NCBI GenBank assembly: GCA_905235115.1
Contig: CAJOKT010000003.1
Span: 11,774-75,773, forward strand
From: an uncultured Peptostreptococcaceae bacterium
GTDB taxonomy: Bacteria; Bacillota; Clostridia; Peptostreptococcales; Anaerovoracaceae
Length of the DNA: 64,000 nucleotides
Direction: 5' to 3'
This document shows positions 23,590 to 29,256 of this stretch, in pieces. A program made the translations under genes and the position numbers. Position 1 is the first letter of the stretch, and each line of letters begins with the position of its first letter. The notes beneath the pieces were generated by a model that saw nothing but the letters and a program-made list of their open reading frames with translations, searched no databases and had not been told where the DNA came from.

Positions 23590-25350
23590 ATGAAACCAAA
23601 GAAGTATTTAATCGAGTATCCTGATCTATTGAAAGAGTGGGATTATGAAAAAAATGAAGAAATGGGCCTAAAACCAGACAAAGTTTCTATTGGAAGCAAC
23701 AAGATAGTCTGGTGGCTATGTCCGTTAGGTCATAGTTATGATATGAGACTGGCAACACGAAAGCGTGGTTCTGGTTGCCCATATTGTTCTGGTCGACGAG
23801 TGCTAAAAGGTTTTAATGATTTAGCTACCAAGGTTCCACAAGCGCTGAAATATTGGGATTACAATAAGAATGCCATTAGCCCAGAAGAGGTGTCACCAGG
23901 ATCAAACGAGGTGGCATGGTGGAAGTGCAATAACGGACATAGTTATGACATGACTATACACAAGAGAGTATCCAGAAACCTCGGCAGTTGTCCTATATGT
24001 TCCGGACATAAAACGGTATCAGGAATTAATGATTTTGCAACACTCTATCCCGAAATAGCTAAAGAATGGCATCCTACTAAAAATGGGGACGTTACGCCTA
24101 ACACTATTTCAAAGAAGAACGGCAACAAATATTGGTGGCAATGTAAGTATGGCCACGAATGGCAAGCAACGCCGCATGACAGGGCTGAAGGAACGGGTTG
24201 TCCTGAGTGCTTCAGGAGGTTCCAAACTTCCTTTTTCGAGCAGGCCATTTATTACTATGTAAAACAACTGTATCCAAACACAAAAAACCGGTACAAAGAT
24301 ATATTTGATAACGGAATGGAACTTGATGTTTACGTCCCTGATATCAAGCTTGGAATAGAATTTGATGGCATAAACTGGCATCAAGCAGAAGACAATAAAA
24401 GACGTGACAAGGAGAAGTTTAGAATTTGTTCTGAAAAGGGCATAAAGCTGATTCGAATTATTGAAACAAAAGAACGAGACTGGGATAATTCGACTGCCAC
24501 GTACCATATACGAAAGAAGAATAAAGAGGATCTTCAGGGTGCTGTCCAAGATATTCTGAATAGGATAGATCCGGAATCCAATATGTGGACTAGAAAGAAT
24601 CCACTGCAGCACTACAGTAGGATTATTGTTGACATTGAACGAGATGAAATAGACATAAGGTCATCATATATGAGTGTCATTCCGAATTCTTTGGTTGATT
24701 TCCGGCCTGATTTACTAGAAGACTGGAATTATGAAAGAAACGGTAAACTAAAGCCCGAGATGTTCGGTATTAATTCAAACGATCGCGTTTGGTGGAAGTG
24801 CCATAAATGCGGGCATGAATGGCAAACTACCGTAATACATAGAGGTGGTAAACGAAACAGCGGTTGTCCCGAATGTTCTAAAGAAAAAAAGGGCAAAACG
24901 TTTACTGCAAAACGGGTCTCCGAAAGAGGATCACTGGCAGATAAAAATCCTGAACTGGCTAAACAGTGGCATCCAACCAAAAACGGTGATTTAAAACCAA
25001 CTGATATTACAGAAAAAAGATTCAAGCCCGTATGGTGGCTTTGCCCGGTATGTGGTCATGAGTGGGAAGCATCACCTAACAGTAGAACGCAGGGAATAGG
25101 ATGCCCATGCTGCAGCGGAAGGGTTCCAAGGGTTGGCGTAAATGATCTGAAGACACTATTTCCAGACATAGCAAAAGAATGGAACTATGAAAAGAATGGC
25201 GATGTAAAACCTGAAGATCGTCTGCCTGGCAGCGGAAAGAAAGCATGGTGGAGATGTTCGGTTTGTGGTTGCGAGTGGGAAGCTATCATTAAGAATAGGA
25301 CAAAAGGAAGCGGATGCCCAAATTGGAGACATCATTTTAGAAAGAGTTAA
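23590..25350 (+). CDS. Multi-zinc-ribbon protein with a central Vsr/DUF559-like endonuclease domain
   Basis: Six copies of the pattern WW.C..GH.W......R..G.GCP.C, three on each side of the block MELDVYVPDIKLGIEFDGINWH...RRDKEKF...GIKLIRI. The start codon is uncertain because there is no clear SD. Confidence 0.7.
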   Translation: MKPKKYLIEYPDLLKEWDYEKNEEMGLKPDKVSIGSNKIVWWLCPLGHSYDMRLATRKRGSGCPYCSGRRVLKGFNDLATKVPQALKYWDYNKNAISPEEVSPGSNEVAWWKCNNGHSYDMTIHKRVSRNLGSCPICSGHKTVSGINDFATLYPEIAKEWHPTKNGDVTPNTISKKNGNKYWWQCKYGHEWQATPHDRAEGTGCPECFRRFQTSFFEQAIYYYVKQLYPNTKNRYKDIFDNGMELDVYVPDIKLGIEFDGINWHQAEDNKRRDKEKFRICSEKGIKLIRIIETKERDWDNSTATYHIRKKNKEDLQGAVQDILNRIDPESNMWTRKNPLQHYSRIIVDIERDEIDIRSSYMSVIPNSLVDFRPDLLEDWNYERNGKLKPEMFGINSNDRVWWKCHKCGHEWQTTVIHRGGKRNSGCPECSKEKKGKTFTAKRVSERGSLADKNPELAKQWHPTKNGDLKPTDITEKRFKPVWWLCPVCGHEWEASPNSRTQGIGCPCCSGRVPRVGVNDLKTLFPDIAKEWNYEKNGDVKPEDRLPGSGKKAWWRCSVCGCEWEAIIKNRTKGSGCPNWRHHFRKS

Positions 25351-25693: not shown

Positions 25694-26818
25694 ATGATAT
25701 ATAAGTACATCTATGATATTGATCGAGTCGAAAGTATTATAGACTTATTTTTGGAATACGTTTCAAAACAGCCTCGGCAGATAGGAAAGAAGGTTTCGTT
25801 CTCATCTGGATATTTGCATTATATGGAAGGCTATAAGCCTGCCGTCTATGTAAAAACGGCTGATATCTTAGAGATTAAAAAATGGGATAAAAGAACATCC
25901 CCCGAAGACATTGTTGCACGAGCAATCAAAGCAATTAAGTTAAGCGAGAATAATCTTGTAGACTGGAGGGAAAAGTCTCGTTTTGAAGAAAGGTTGCTGG
26001 AGGACACAACAACTGGAGGAAACTTACTTCAGAGGTTGTTTTGCACTGAAAACGATGATCAGACTGCAGAGGACCTTGCTGGATTTTTTGGGCGAAGGTA
26101 TGACATGATAGCCTATTTGTTTTTTATTAAAGATCCGGACCGATATTATCCATGCAGGCCTACTGTGTTTAAAAAGGCGTTCGATGATCTTGGAGTGGAC
26201 TCAACTTGTTTTGGACGATTTACCTATGATAAGTACGTACAGTACAACGACACACTAAGGGAACTTGCAAACCTGTATTCTTCGTACAGGGACCATATCA
26301 GTGTTTTGGATGCTCATTCTTTTGCCTGGATAGTCGGGAAATATAAAGATGTGAGGAATTACATCTTTGAATGTGATGAAGAAGAGACAACAGTTAAAGA
26401 CCAAACCGGGAAAAAAGAAAAGCTGGCTGTAGTCAAGACAAGGGTGAATCAAAGTGAGTTCCGGAGAAAAGTAGTTGAATACTGGGGAGAAGAGTGTTCG
26501 GTTACGGGGTGTAAACAGACCGATCTTTTGGTAGCATCACATATAAAACCATGGAGGGATTGTACGCTTAATAGCGAAAGCTCAAACAAGTTTAATGGCT
26601 TGCTGCTTACACCAAATCTGGATGCACTATTTGACGCAGGATACATTTCGTTTAAAGATGACGGAACAATCCTGATTTCCGAAAGGTTGTCTGATTCCAC
26701 AATAAAGATCTTTGGGCTGTCTAATGACATGAAACTTCGCTGGATTGAGGATACGCACAAAGGATTCCTCCAGTATCACAGGGAGAATATCTTCAGGCAG
26801 TTAATTACGAGCAAATAA
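25694..26818 (+). CDS. HNH endonuclease (HNH_2-type C-terminal domain) with an uncharacterised ~240-aa N-terminal domain
   Basis: C-terminal segment FRRKVVEYWGEECSVTGC...LLVASHIKPW...NGLLLTPNLDALFDAGYISF. Confidence 0.8.
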   Translation: MIYKYIYDIDRVESIIDLFLEYVSKQPRQIGKKVSFSSGYLHYMEGYKPAVYVKTADILEIKKWDKRTSPEDIVARAIKAIKLSENNLVDWREKSRFEERLLEDTTTGGNLLQRLFCTENDDQTAEDLAGFFGRRYDMIAYLFFIKDPDRYYPCRPTVFKKAFDDLGVDSTCFGRFTYDKYVQYNDTLRELANLYSSYRDHISVLDAHSFAWIVGKYKDVRNYIFECDEEETTVKDQTGKKEKLAVVKTRVNQSEFRRKVVEYWGEECSVTGCKQTDLLVASHIKPWRDCTLNSESSNKFNGLLLTPNLDALFDAGYISFKDDGTILISERLSDSTIKIFGLSNDMKLRWIEDTHKGFLQYHRENIFRQLITSK

Positions 26819-26831
26819 CACAGGCATTATC

Positions 26832-27839
26832 ATGAAAGACCAAGAAGCTAACACAACTAAACGCCCGCCCAAGGCACCAAACTCCGAGAAAACTCGCCTT
26901 CTAGTTCTTTACAAGTTCTTCTACGAGAATACCGATGAGGACCATCAGGTAACATATGATGATATTTTCCAATATCTTAAGGAGCATGATGTTCTTGCCA
27001 ATCACATGACCGTCCGCGACGATATCCGACTATTGATGGACCTGGGTTACGATATAGTGCGTGTTCCAAGCAGACCGGTCAAATATTTTATGGGGCAGCG
27101 TGAAATGGAGGCTGCCGAAGTCAAGCTTCTTATAGATGCAGTTTCATCATCGCGTTTCATCACGTCCAAGAAGAGCCGCGATCTCGCCAAGAAGCTGGGT
27201 AACCTTACAAGCCAGTATCAGCGCAAGGAACTCAAGAGGAACATCTATGCCACTCACCGTGCCAAGACAGACAACGAAGAAATCTACTACACGGTTGACG
27301 TGGTGAATACGGCGATCAACTCCAAGAAAAAGATTTCCTTCCAGTACACAGAGTACACGCCTAAAGAAGGCAAGGTGCTGCGTAACGACGGTGAAGTCTA
27401 TGAGCTGAGCCCATACGCCCTTTTTTGGAATGAGGACTACTATTATGTGGTCGGCTGGTCTGATAAGCATCAGAATGTATCTGTTTTCAGGACAGACAGG
27501 TTATATAAGCCGCAGGTACTGAAAGAGAAAGCAGTCAAGAAACCAGATGACTTCAGTCTGGACGCATACTCCAAGAGGATCTTTGAGATGTATGACGGAG
27601 ATCCCGTGGAAGTCAGGCTGAAATGCAAGAACGAACTCATGAAGTATATTGTGGATCGGTTCGGGCCGGATTTCGAAATGAAACCTGCAGCCAAGGACAG
27701 CTTTATCGCTACCGTGGAAGTATCGCTGAGCCCAACGTTTTACGCCTGGGTATTCACCTTCGGCGGGGGAATAAGGATAATGACCCCGAAGAAGGCCGTT
27801 ACTGAGTTCAGAGATATGGCGAAAGCGGTGCTGGAGTAG
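26832..27839 (+). CDS. WYL-domain transcriptional regulator (wHTH plus WYL plus C-terminal extension)
   Basis: N-terminal HTH segment, then ISFQYTEYT...YELSPYALFWNEDYYYVVGW...FRTDRL, the canonical WYL-domain pattern. Confidence 0.85.
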   Translation: MKDQEANTTKRPPKAPNSEKTRLLVLYKFFYENTDEDHQVTYDDIFQYLKEHDVLANHMTVRDDIRLLMDLGYDIVRVPSRPVKYFMGQREMEAAEVKLLIDAVSSSRFITSKKSRDLAKKLGNLTSQYQRKELKRNIYATHRAKTDNEEIYYTVDVVNTAINSKKKISFQYTEYTPKEGKVLRNDGEVYELSPYALFWNEDYYYVVGWSDKHQNVSVFRTDRLYKPQVLKEKAVKKPDDFSLDAYSKRIFEMYDGDPVEVRLKCKNELMKYIVDRFGPDFEMKPAAKDSFIATVEVSLSPTFYAWVFTFGGGIRIMTPKKAVTEFRDMAKAVLE

Positions 27840-27853
27840 AGAAAGGAGACAAT

Positions 27854-28564
27854 ATGTTAAAAAAGTTTGAACCATTTGAAAGCGTGGACATTAAGGCTTT
27901 TGAAAGATTCAATCGGGATTTGAGAACAATCCTTGAAAAAATGGATGCCGGCGAGATAAACCTTAAAGGACGGCATGCAAAGGAGGAATTCCAATCTTTA
28001 ATAGAGTCTTTTGTTACAGGACAAAGAGGGTCGTTAGGAAGAACAAAAGAAGGAAGTTGGTCTATTGTACCTAACGATGAAGGGATGGATTCCGATAACA
28101 GAGTAGACTATATCTTTATACCTACATATTTGGTCACTGCAATCTTGTCAAGGACACTGTGCGATTTTCCATTGATTGCTATTTCCATTCCTGGCTTCGG
28201 GGAAGCTCTAAAAAAGGGGATGCTCTTCTGCTCGTATCGAAATTTACATGGACATGGGTTTGAAAGCGATATAGGTGCAGCAGAGGCCTTGACTATATTA
28301 TCTATGGGGAAAATACCATGGCTTTTAGAGAAAGATCCAGCATTTTGTCCAGACCTATATAAGGCAATCAAAACAGTCAGTAGAGATATGGAAAGGCGTT
28401 TATCTTTGGGCACGGCTGTTGGACCTTGGGGAGAAAACCTGCAGGATATTTTCAGCTCCTCTTTAGAGACATTATATGTGAAAAATGATATAGAGATGTA
28501 TGAGACTATACAGCATACCAACAAAGACTCCGAACTAGTTGGAAAGGAGGCTTTATTATGGTAA
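27854..28564 (+). CDS. Unknown 236-aa protein in the antitoxin position of a YoeB-like toxin
   Basis: AAAGGAGA SD. The stop TAA (28562..28564) overlaps the toxin ATG (28558) as ATGGTAA. I recognise no known motif. Confidence 0.6.
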   Translation: MLKKFEPFESVDIKAFERFNRDLRTILEKMDAGEINLKGRHAKEEFQSLIESFVTGQRGSLGRTKEGSWSIVPNDEGMDSDNRVDYIFIPTYLVTAILSRTLCDFPLIAISIPGFGEALKKGMLFCSYRNLHGHGFESDIGAAEALTILSMGKIPWLLEKDPAFCPDLYKAIKTVSRDMERRLSLGTAVGPWGENLQDIFSSSLETLYVKNDIEMYETIQHTNKDSELVGKEALLW

Positions 28565-28827
28565 GGTGGCAGGTCGTATTTACAAAGAAGGCACAACGAG
28601 ACTCGGAATTACTCAAAGCAGCAAAGTTGGATAATAAAGCAAAGAGAATAATCAATGAATTAGAGGAAGATCCATACAGAATTCCTCCGCCCTTTGAAAA
28701 GTTAAAAGCTGATTTAAGCGGAAAGTTTTCACGTAGAATTAACATTAAGCATAGAATTGTATATGAAATAATACCAGGTGACAATACAGTTCTTGTTTAT
28801 GGTATGTTCTCACATTATGGAGAATAA
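28558..28827 (+). CDS. yoeB: Txe/YoeB-family toxin (RelE superfamily mRNA interferase)
   Basis: LSGKFSRRINIKHRIVYEI...VLVYGMFSHYGE aligns with E. coli YoeB LSGFWSRRITEEHRLVYAV...RYHY, including the catalytic-position Glu, Arg and His-Tyr. Confidence 0.8.
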   Translation: MVRWQVVFTKKAQRDSELLKAAKLDNKAKRIINELEEDPYRIPPPFEKLKADLSGKFSRRINIKHRIVYEIIPGDNTVLVYGMFSHYGE

Positions 28828-28866
28828 CCCAATAACTCAGAGCAGGCGACTTTTATAACCGAAAGC

Positions 28867-28899
28867 AAAGATGACATATATTTGTCATCTTTTGTTTTT
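28867..28899 (+). terminator. Rho-independent terminator closing the cargo island
   Basis: AAAGATGACA (28867..28876) pairs with TGTCATCTTT (28883..28892), followed by TGTTTTTG. Confidence 0.75.
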
Positions 28900-28989
28900 G
28901 CTTTGATAAAAATCAAGAACATATGTTCTCTTTTGGAAATGACTGTGATATACTATGACCATCACGAGAGACAGAGAGCAGGTGACCAT

Positions 28990-29256
28990 ATGAAAAGACT
29001 AAACAGACCGGTAGAGATGGTGTCTGTGTTCCATGAAGACTGCTCTTATCCCAAACCTGTAAAGTTCAAGCATAAACTTGATAACGGTAGGGTGATCACT
29101 ATCAATGTGGACAGGATCATATCTGAGCGAAAGCGAAAATGGGGTGAGATCATTACTGTGGAGTATGACTGCGAGAGTACTGTAATGGGACAGTACCGGA
29201 GATACCTTTTGGAATTTACAGGCAATAGGCTTGAATGGAAACTGGTAAAGATGTGA
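28990..29256 (+). CDS. Hypothetical small protein
   Basis: The internal ATG 28990 of ORF 28882..29256 is preferred because the upstream part overlaps the terminator/promoter region. No motif recognised. Confidence 0.4.
   Translation: MKRLNRPVEMVSVFHEDCSYPKPVKFKHKLDNGRVITINVDRIISERKRKWGEIITVEYDCESTVMGQYRRYLLEFTGNRLEWKLVKM

Follow-up and report, generated by a model that had tools for sequence, protein, structure and literature searches.

Gene layout, the YoeB toxin and its partner

The DNA considered here is a 64-kb stretch of a contig from an uncultured Peptostreptococcaceae bacterium, referred to below, at its full length, as the window. The element in question lies on its forward strand at 26832–28827, where a WYL/WCX regulator, an uncharacterized protein of 236 amino acids (aa) that we call X, and a Txe/YoeB toxin form one co-directional string. 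The first gene (26832–27839, stop codon TAG at 27837–27839) encodes a transcription regulator of 335 aa with a helix–turn–helix (HTH) followed by WYL and WCX domains, as identified with Pfam and PADLOC, and its homologues have variable neighbours. A spacer of 14 nt (27840–27853), which holds the ribosome-binding site of X (AAAGGAG, 27842–27848), separates it from the open reading frame (ORF) of X (27854–28564), which runs from an ATG at 27854 to a TAA at 28562–28564. A Shine–Dalgarno sequence within the last X codons (AAGGAGG, 28544–28550) and the overlap ATGGTAA (28558–28564) together make up a translational-coupling junction (28544–28564), at which the gene for the 89-aa toxin starts (28558–28827; ATG at 28558). 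The following 28828–28989 is non-coding and contains a terminator-like hairpin (28867–28892, or to 28902 for the whole feature; 10-bp stem, 6-nt loop and T-run), found by a terminator scan and as inverted repeat I3 and scoring on both strands, which would close the gene string.

The assignment of the toxin is straightforward. The 89-aa protein matches the NCBIfam equivalog TIGR02116 (Txe/YoeB) with 78.1 bits against a cutoff of 51.8 (E = 4.4e-22) and the Pfam family YoeB_toxin (PF06769) with 37.7 bits versus 27 (E = 2.1e-9). The top match in the PDB is S. aureus YoeB (7v5y; E = 1.1e-11), with the FEKL, HR(I/V)VY and SHY motifs aligned, and the YoeB entry 2a6q is matched as well. Residues E47, R66, H86 and Y87 are presumably the counterparts of E46, R65, H83 and Y84 of E. 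coli YoeB, and the residues at these catalytic positions (E313, R332, H352 and Y353 in the paired X–YoeB alignment A3) are invariant across 13 X-linked YoeBs. By these matches the toxin is a bona fide, ordinary Txe/YoeB member with intact catalytic positions, and ribosome-dependent mRNA interferase activity is predicted for it from family membership.

X and YoeB are, judging from sequence comparison, a conserved, translationally coupled two-gene module. Around 75 loci were sampled through scans of genome and metagenome collections and single-protein look-ups, and X was found with YoeB directly downstream, overlapping by 4 or 7 nt, in approximately 16 distinct lineages; these include gut Bacillota-like contigs, an actinobacterial metagenome-assembled genome (MAG; L003), a MAG of the Hyphomicrobiales (L006; Alphaproteobacteria) and freshwater contigs. 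Wherever the full 236-position X profile was matched and there was room downstream, YoeB always came next. The junction is alike in 14 other lineages, with GGAGG in the last X codons and an NTGG–TAx overlap in which the NTG start lies inside the terminal Trp codon and the stop. Such repeated occurrence of the pair and of its overlapping junction, in about 16 lineages, is more than chance would give. Across 105 pairs, the identity of the X domain rises and falls with that of YoeB (r = 0.77), and X is acidic and YoeB basic. The initial annotation of this DNA had placed the three ORFs, the spacer and the overlap at these plus-strand coordinates, had called the 89-aa product YoeB/Txe-like with its catalytic positions retained, and had put the 236-aa gene in the antitoxin position; all of this holds, the first by direct inspection, the second by the TIGR02116 score and the motif alignment to 7v5y, and the third by the constancy with which this gene accompanies YoeB.

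The YoeBs nearest to that of the window outside the X-linked group (P0338, P0340 and P0341; 52–56% identity) are each directly preceded by a canonical PhdYeFM antitoxin (PF02604) of 82–83 aa; relative to these, the antitoxin has been replaced in the X–YoeB lineage. Query sequences of the known antitoxins retrieved no Phd/YefM, Axe or RelB-like ORF in any frame of the window, and the two ORFs downstream of YoeB carry no Pfam domain of the Phd/YefM/Axe/RelB type.

The gene preceding the pair in lineages without a WYL gene differs from one to the other: an Mrr endonuclease (L019), REase-ARP (L035), T5orf172 (L003), a cupin (L061) or small unknown ORFs; in L056, Fic lies upstream on the opposite strand. 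Several modules have an upstream intergenic region of their own, of 143–385 nt. The typical surroundings are restriction and defence genes (Mrr, GmrSD, REase-ARP, HNH_2 and DUF5677), a setting that fits equally a role in defence and a role in stabilizing the island or the integrative and conjugative element (ICE).

Protein X, its C-terminal tail and its relatives

X is matched by nothing in Pfam (E ≤ 0.1), NCBIfam, PADLOC, PHROGs or the PDB sequences, and in particular gives no match to PF02604, the family of the Phd/YefM N-terminal DNA-binding domain. Among 5.8 billion proteins, the close relatives of X amount to only 45 clusters, all of about 236 aa and all unnamed. An AlphaFold2 model built on an alignment of these relatives is all-alpha, with 10 helices, a predicted local distance difference test score (pLDDT) of 88.9 and a predicted TM-score of 0.86. 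Foldseek found no match to this model at E ≤ 0.001, the best being E = 0.26 in the PDB and 0.096 in BFVD; the faint matches are alpha/alpha-toroid-like (C3d TED, GH116; TM 0.35–0.40), and the X profile retrieved only noise from the PDB sequences. The initial impression that the protein has no recognizable antitoxin DNA-binding fold is thus upheld by the lack of a Pfam match and by an all-alpha model without a Foldseek relative. A terpene-cyclase QW-motif or LanC-like nature, considered from the Q…GSW and GHG motifs, was rejected because the spacing is wrong and structural support is lacking. X accordingly divides into a core domain (residues 1–211; 27854–28486), novel and all-alpha by the AlphaFold2, Foldseek and family-conservation results, and a C-terminal tail (residues 212–236, NDIEMYETIQHTNKDSELVGKEALLW; 28487–28561), which has low pLDDT and is confined to the YoeB-linked clade.

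The core belongs to a much wider family. A profile search of 1.84 billion representatives recovered 600 at E ≤ 1e-3 and 394 at E ≤ 1e-10, and most members of the family have no toxin partner. The signature, taken from 149 representatives, comprises Q57, G67-S-W69, D81-x-R83-V-D-F, P90-T-Y92, G122, R129-x-L-x-G133-H-G135 and G152. In the model these residues lie mostly in inter-helix loops, and the clustering of conserved polar motifs there speaks for a specific site of binding or catalysis. Of the 149 best representatives, 44 are at least 300 aa long, and Pfam assigned to these long members GGACT (17), AIG2_2 (11), a winged helix of the MarR/IclR kind (a few) and, once each, FGase, Methylase_S and AH_C; the GGACT domains are found on either side of X.

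The tail is what sets YoeB-linked X proteins apart from the rest of the family. Its 25 residues are poorly modelled (block-mean pLDDT 59, 46 and 43 over 211–236, and below 50 in 225–236), and profile positions 211–236 are filled in only 6–16% of the family representatives. Tail net charge ranges from −7 to +2 among 15 lineages, being negative in 10 of them and −3 in the window. Mean identity is 31% in the tail versus 50% in the domain, indicating that the tail evolves faster. YoeB is present for every X whose profile match reaches 233–236 with room downstream, and absent for every X that ends by about 215 or runs into other domains. Three solo X genes (L021, L042 and L007), each without tail and toxin, nest in the YoeB-linked clade of a neighbour-joining tree; on that tree, tail and toxin have been lost jointly in three nested lineages.

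When the last 42 residues of X were aligned by hhalign with the YefM partners of the nearest YoeBs, the two C-termini coincided over 39 columns (probability 83%, E = 8.9e-6), and hidden Markov models of the X tail, run against 6,499 six-frame decoy segments, returned those same YefMs as the best non-X matches (E = 0.01–0.17). The shared pattern at the C-terminal end is ETxYL … EEDxxW. Together with the co-occurrence of tail and toxin, this suggests that the tail probably neutralizes YoeB.

Relatives of X in other gene contexts are dominated by one theme. In most multidomain members X is joined to GGACT/AIG2 gamma-glutamyl-cyclotransferase-like domains, one or two of them and on either side (for example L010 3773–6364, L011 5902–7335, L014 5914–7335, L048 1783–2784, and the proteins P0053, P0099, P0126, P0129, P0160 and P0186); some of these carry a C-terminal winged HTH (wHTH), and one an N-terminal domain that by eye is metallo-beta-lactamase-like. 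A conserved regulator family of the HTH_11 type (motif HPxFLxENLTQ) lies directly upstream of the fusion genes (L011 4660–5745, L014 4691–5746, L048 996–1697, L049 351–1319 and L050 286–1290; in L049 and L050, where X is cut by the contig end, GGACT is presumed). Microbulbifer has X and GGACT as separate, overlapping and co-directional genes (L015 5977–8224), with a 244-aa ORF, FGase-like by eye, two genes beyond. On the chromid of Azospirillum brasilense (L072 3273–4513) the two genes are divergent and the X ORF stops early (profile match to about 173). This truncated X was the one match in the plasmid collection, and the phage collections contained none, so that an origin in plasmid addiction or in phages is unsupported by these collections.

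In a second clade, found in MAGs of Thermoleophilia and Actinomycetes (L004 5728–7797, L005) and in related metagenome contigs (L023 2790–5254, L026, L027, L032), X continues into a C-terminal extension of about 400 aa to which Pfam assigns no family; the next gene always overlaps it and encodes an HD-domain protein (197–212 aa), the first half of the tail is kept (profile to 228), and YoeB is absent. L025 and L031 have X genes without the tail, each behind a 138-aa ORF (817–1233 and 979–1395, respectively) that by eye is HEPN-like. A partial ORF farther downstream in L031 is similar to the C-terminal extension of the Thermoleophilia/Actinomycetes clade, and the solo X genes of these two loci may therefore be frameshifted fusions. 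Tandem short paralogues (181–191 aa) occur in rumen and buffalo-gut contigs (L012/L013 5887–7258, L051–L055), in L012/L013 beside a 691-aa ORF that is DUF2075-like by eye, and Haliangium (L009) has three tandem paralogues, each with a C-terminal extension of 170–215 aa.

The WYL regulator and the cargo slot

The WYL protein matches Pfam WYL (E = 2.3e-10, residues 155–225) and WCX (1.5e-7, 258–334), with a weak winged-helix match at 37–75, and the PADLOC WYL model (E = 9.4e-29). Its profile retrieves only generic WYL-domain chains from the PDB, over the WYL–WCX part (E = 5e-5 to 2e-4). The upstream WYL-domain regulator of the initial annotation is confirmed by these matches, and its placing in the BrxR/CapW class stands for the HTH–WYL–WCX architecture and fails for a promoter and operator of its own at the head of an operon: no inverted-repeat operator was found upstream of the gene in a scan of 26500–29100, and it follows the HNH gene by 13 nt and so sits inside a longer string rather than at the head of a dedicated operon. 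The promoter scan revealed no convincing promoter between WYL and X and no promoter excess in the region, and the gap leaves X–YoeB no space for one in the window. Given this and the 14-nt spacer, X–YoeB is likely co-transcribed with WYL here, and read-through from the WYL-containing string is likely in the window.

The initial annotation had gone further, proposing a three-gene, WYL-controlled toxin system. In its fullest form this would be a genuine three-component toxin–antitoxin (TA) system of the omega–epsilon–zeta or PaaR–PaaA–ParE type, in which WYL would take over transcriptional autoregulation, with de-repression in response to a signal, for an X that lacks a DNA-binding domain, and all three genes would work as one unit. 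The absence of a DNA-binding fold in X speaks for it, as do the narrow gap without a convincing promoter and the same WYL–X–YoeB order in L078 behind other upstream cargo (an Mrr-helicase, two Dcm-type methylases, BpuJI_N and Vsr). BrxR-family WYL regulators are also reported to co-localize with many defence systems, including type II and IV TA systems (PMC9122601), which makes the adjacency of WYL and X–YoeB unsurprising. The wider survey nonetheless weighs heavily on the other side. WYL lies upstream in only 2 of the approximately 16 X–YoeB lineages, namely the window (with the identical L001/L002) and L078, both of the same ICE family, and the 14 others have no conserved regulator upstream, WYL or otherwise. 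The WYL family counts more than 1,263 clusters at E ≤ 1e-10 against 45 for X, about 30-fold more, and close homologues (58–93% identity) sit in similar co-directional cargo strings with differing genes on both sides: LigT, the type I subunit HsdR or a 966-aa unknown protein upstream, and a MerR-like protein, a lipoprotein-like 397-aa protein or DUF4116 downstream. In L065, where the WYL gene has 71% identity, a 90-aa gene comes after it and homologues of the backbone genes orf88, orf95 and orf198 (89, 61 and 61%) directly after that, with no X–YoeB. Between the window and L078, WYL is only 54.5% identical, as against 77.5% for X and 85% for YoeB, and the blastn match (80% over 989 nt) begins at 27840, exactly after the WYL stop, so that the 14-nt spacer forms the left edge of the X–YoeB cassette common to the two. 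A three-component system is therefore improbable: of the proposed trio, the X–YoeB pair recurs, and the full WYL–X–YoeB set is found only in the window and L078.

The DNA match that starts after the WYL stop and the divergence of WYL itself argue instead that X–YoeB is a cassette in a variable slot between a resident regulator and the ICE backbone. WYL is, by this comparison, resident in this ICE family and does not belong to what is conserved of the toxin module. A local influence of WYL on X–YoeB expression is plausible; it is not a defining feature. A recurring link between WYL-type regulators and the X family was also considered and rejected, the HTH_11 regulators upstream of the X–GGACT fusions not being WYL-like (hhalign probability 0.4%).

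The neighbourhood was read from L001, a metagenomic contig that is identical here. Ahead of WYL–X–YoeB it encodes a VirB4/TraG-like ATPase, a CHAP hydrolase, an N6/N4 methyltransferase, a ResIII helicase, a DUF4379 zinc-finger protein and an HNH_2 nuclease; behind it come small backbone genes and the genes of a sigma-70 region-4 protein and an integrase. This gene set agrees with an ICE whose cargo string is of the defence type. Across the related ICEs (L064, L065, L067, L069 and L078, compared with the window) WYL is constant and its flanks vary (LigT, HsdR, Dcm/Vsr, DUF4116, MerR-like, X–YoeB); the WYL gene is always 0–42 nt from whichever gene precedes it, and it seems to mark a cargo-exchange hotspot. 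A conserved gene of 90–91 aa stands directly before orf88 in L065 (6184–6456) and L078 (7422–7697) and is absent from the window. Among the upstream cargo of the window, a 586-aa protein (23590–25350) contains DUF4379 treble-clef zinc fingers in six repeats (E = 4.5e-114), placed within or around a weakly matched MTES_1575 restriction-endonuclease-like segment, and is probably a nuclease of the cargo island. The 374-aa HNH_2 protein (25694–26818; PADLOC HNH, 8e-27) has an N-terminal region of about 230 aa without an assigned family; part of a 960-aa protein encoded after WYL in L069 (10400–10993) and L071 shares 29% identity with this region, and this likeness suggests module shuffling among islands.

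Interpretation and comparison with known systems

The explanation that we favour, with moderate confidence, is that X–YoeB is a type II-like TA pair with a new kind of antitoxin, in which the tail would neutralize an active mRNase and the X domain would be a co-opted binding module. YoeB would cleave mRNA in a ribosome-dependent manner, and the tail would wrap and block it by analogy with the YefM C-terminus. The DNA-binding N-domain of Phd/YefM would have given way to an all-alpha domain of about 210 residues drawn from a larger family, and this globular domain would serve as a ligand- or partner-binding, that is sensor or regulatory, module and not as a DNA binder. X would thus be a co-opted sensor/regulatory scaffold onto which a toxin-binding tail has been grafted. 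In the window WYL may set the expression of the pair, though it stands outside the module. The earlier idea of a non-canonical neutralizer or sensor role for the 236-aa protein is strengthened by these results and is our best reading of it.

Several observations weigh against this explanation. The tail is non-acidic (0 to +2) in L028/L030/L033, L035 and L040, and its correlation with YoeB is partly phylogenetic, the YoeB-linked proteins sharing a clade. The hhalign probability falls to 5.7% when the last 26 residues alone are used; much of the YefM-like signal lies in the ALETLYL helix, a feature shared by X proteins that have no YoeB; and the terminal EEDLxW is in part constrained by the Shine–Dalgarno sequence lying within it (GGAGGA) and by the overlapping NTGG start. 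For these reasons the YefM likeness is taken as a resemblance and not as proven homology, and a YefM origin of the tail, suggested by the 39-column signal that vanishes with the tail alone, is not adopted. The trio does recur in a further ICE variant, L078, so that a local functional tie to WYL may yet exist. Lastly, the strong family-wide polar conservation in X is unusual for antitoxins, and X could on this account be an enzyme acting on YoeB or on another target, in a type VII-like manner, rather than a stoichiometric binder.

It is tempting to extend the favoured explanation to the whole family, although we consider this extension rather unlikely. The X domain might be a widespread sensor module of conflict systems that gates YoeB in trans through a YefM-like tail and GGACT/AIG2 in cis by fusion, and that would release them once a ligand or protein derived from phage or stress occupies the conserved pocket (Q57, W69, D81, R83, T91-Y92, R129 and G-H-G). 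If so, X–YoeB would be a sensor–antitoxin defence module and X–GGACT a new fused effector system.

The main alternative for the X domain is the enzymatic one, in which X would neutralize or modulate YoeB by catalysis, like a type VII antitoxin, or would have a small molecule or peptide as its substrate, and the tail would be only a linker shaped by translational coupling. In about 150 divergent representatives, residues Q57, W69, D81, R83, T91, Y92, R129 and H134 are invariant or nearly so; the fusion partners and neighbours of the family are mainly GGACT/AIG2 enzymes of the amidohydrolase type, with FGase once among them; and the terminal EEDLxW can be explained by the Shine–Dalgarno sequence and start codon embedded there. 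X nevertheless resembles no enzyme fold or family, the tail occurs with YoeB and is lost with it, and an acidic X with a basic YoeB encoded by overlapping genes is typical of stoichiometric type II pairs; we give this alternative little probability.

The homologues of X that are fused to separate wHTH domains and GGACT enzymes follow the usual pattern of ligand- or partner-binding regulatory domains. Palindromes upstream of X–YoeB were considered as autoregulatory operators and rejected as such, those found resembling terminators of upstream genes. To read X as a conventional type II antitoxin, with a globular domain that binds DNA and autoregulates the operon but has escaped recognition, would accord with the classical gene order and coupling and with the 143–385-nt intergenic regions upstream of stand-alone modules, but is highly improbable in view of the net negative charge of the domain (−1 to −17), the lack of a recurrent operator-like palindrome upstream of stand-alone modules in 11 loci, the separate wHTH domains of homologues and the many family members without a toxin partner.

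With respect to known systems, the arrangement in the window and L078 recalls omega–epsilon–zeta and PaaR2–PaaA2–ParE2, where a regulator is likewise followed by an antitoxin without a DNA-binding domain and then by the toxin. It departs from them in that the WYL regulator is kept with X–YoeB in one ICE family only and has other neighbours in most genomes, and in that WYL is of the ligand-responsive type, not a dedicated small repressor. BrxR and CapW (PMC9122601, PMC9122589) share with the WYL protein the HTH–WYL–WCX architecture, the location in defence islands and the variable downstream cargo, including a TA pair. In contrast to them, the WYL protein of the window is only distantly like the solved WYL proteins (E of about 1e-4 to 1e-5), and its gene lies mid-string, 13 nt after HNH, with neither an intergenic region upstream nor an inverted-repeat operator to itself. 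In this ICE family the WYL gene seems to mark a slot for the exchange of defence-type cargo.

A further parallel, in logic, is Panacea (PanA, DUF4065), the hyperpromiscuous antitoxin domain of the combinatorial TA network NetFlax (PMC10440598): in both, a domain that does not bind DNA is found beside or fused to unrelated effectors (for X: YoeB, GGACT/AIG2 and others), often in defence islands. X has, however, no sequence relationship to PanA, with no Pfam DUF4065 match at E ≤ 0.1, and the main text of the NetFlax paper does not mention YoeB, GGACT or WYL. Among the papers found by full-text searches on YoeB partners and on GGACT/AIG2 in defence or TA systems, no title or abstract pointed to an X–YoeB or X–GGACT pairing, and PADLOC has no model for X or for X–GGACT fusions. 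The X domain family, with about 600 clusters at 50% identity and a strong Rosetta-stone link to GGACT/AIG2, is unnamed and is described by none of the libraries searched.

The closest comparison is with YefM–YoeB and Axe–Txe. The toxin is of the same family with its catalytic positions kept, the order is antitoxin then toxin in a conserved pair of overlapping, translationally coupled genes, the upstream partner is acidic and the toxin basic, and the C-terminal end of X resembles YefM C-termini. The differences lie in the partner: X has 236 aa as against about 83 aa for YefM, a novel all-alpha domain without a Pfam or PDB relative takes the place of the Phd/YefM N-terminal DNA-binding domain, and operator-like palindromes were not found for X–YoeB. 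To our knowledge, YoeB, which is among the best-studied toxins, has so far been tied to antitoxins of the Phd/YefM type. X–YoeB would then be a clean natural swap of YefM for a large, structurally unassigned protein, and a tractable case in which to study how toxin neutralization is transplanted onto new scaffolds and what the non-DNA-binding domain of an antitoxin contributes in sensing, stability or regulation.

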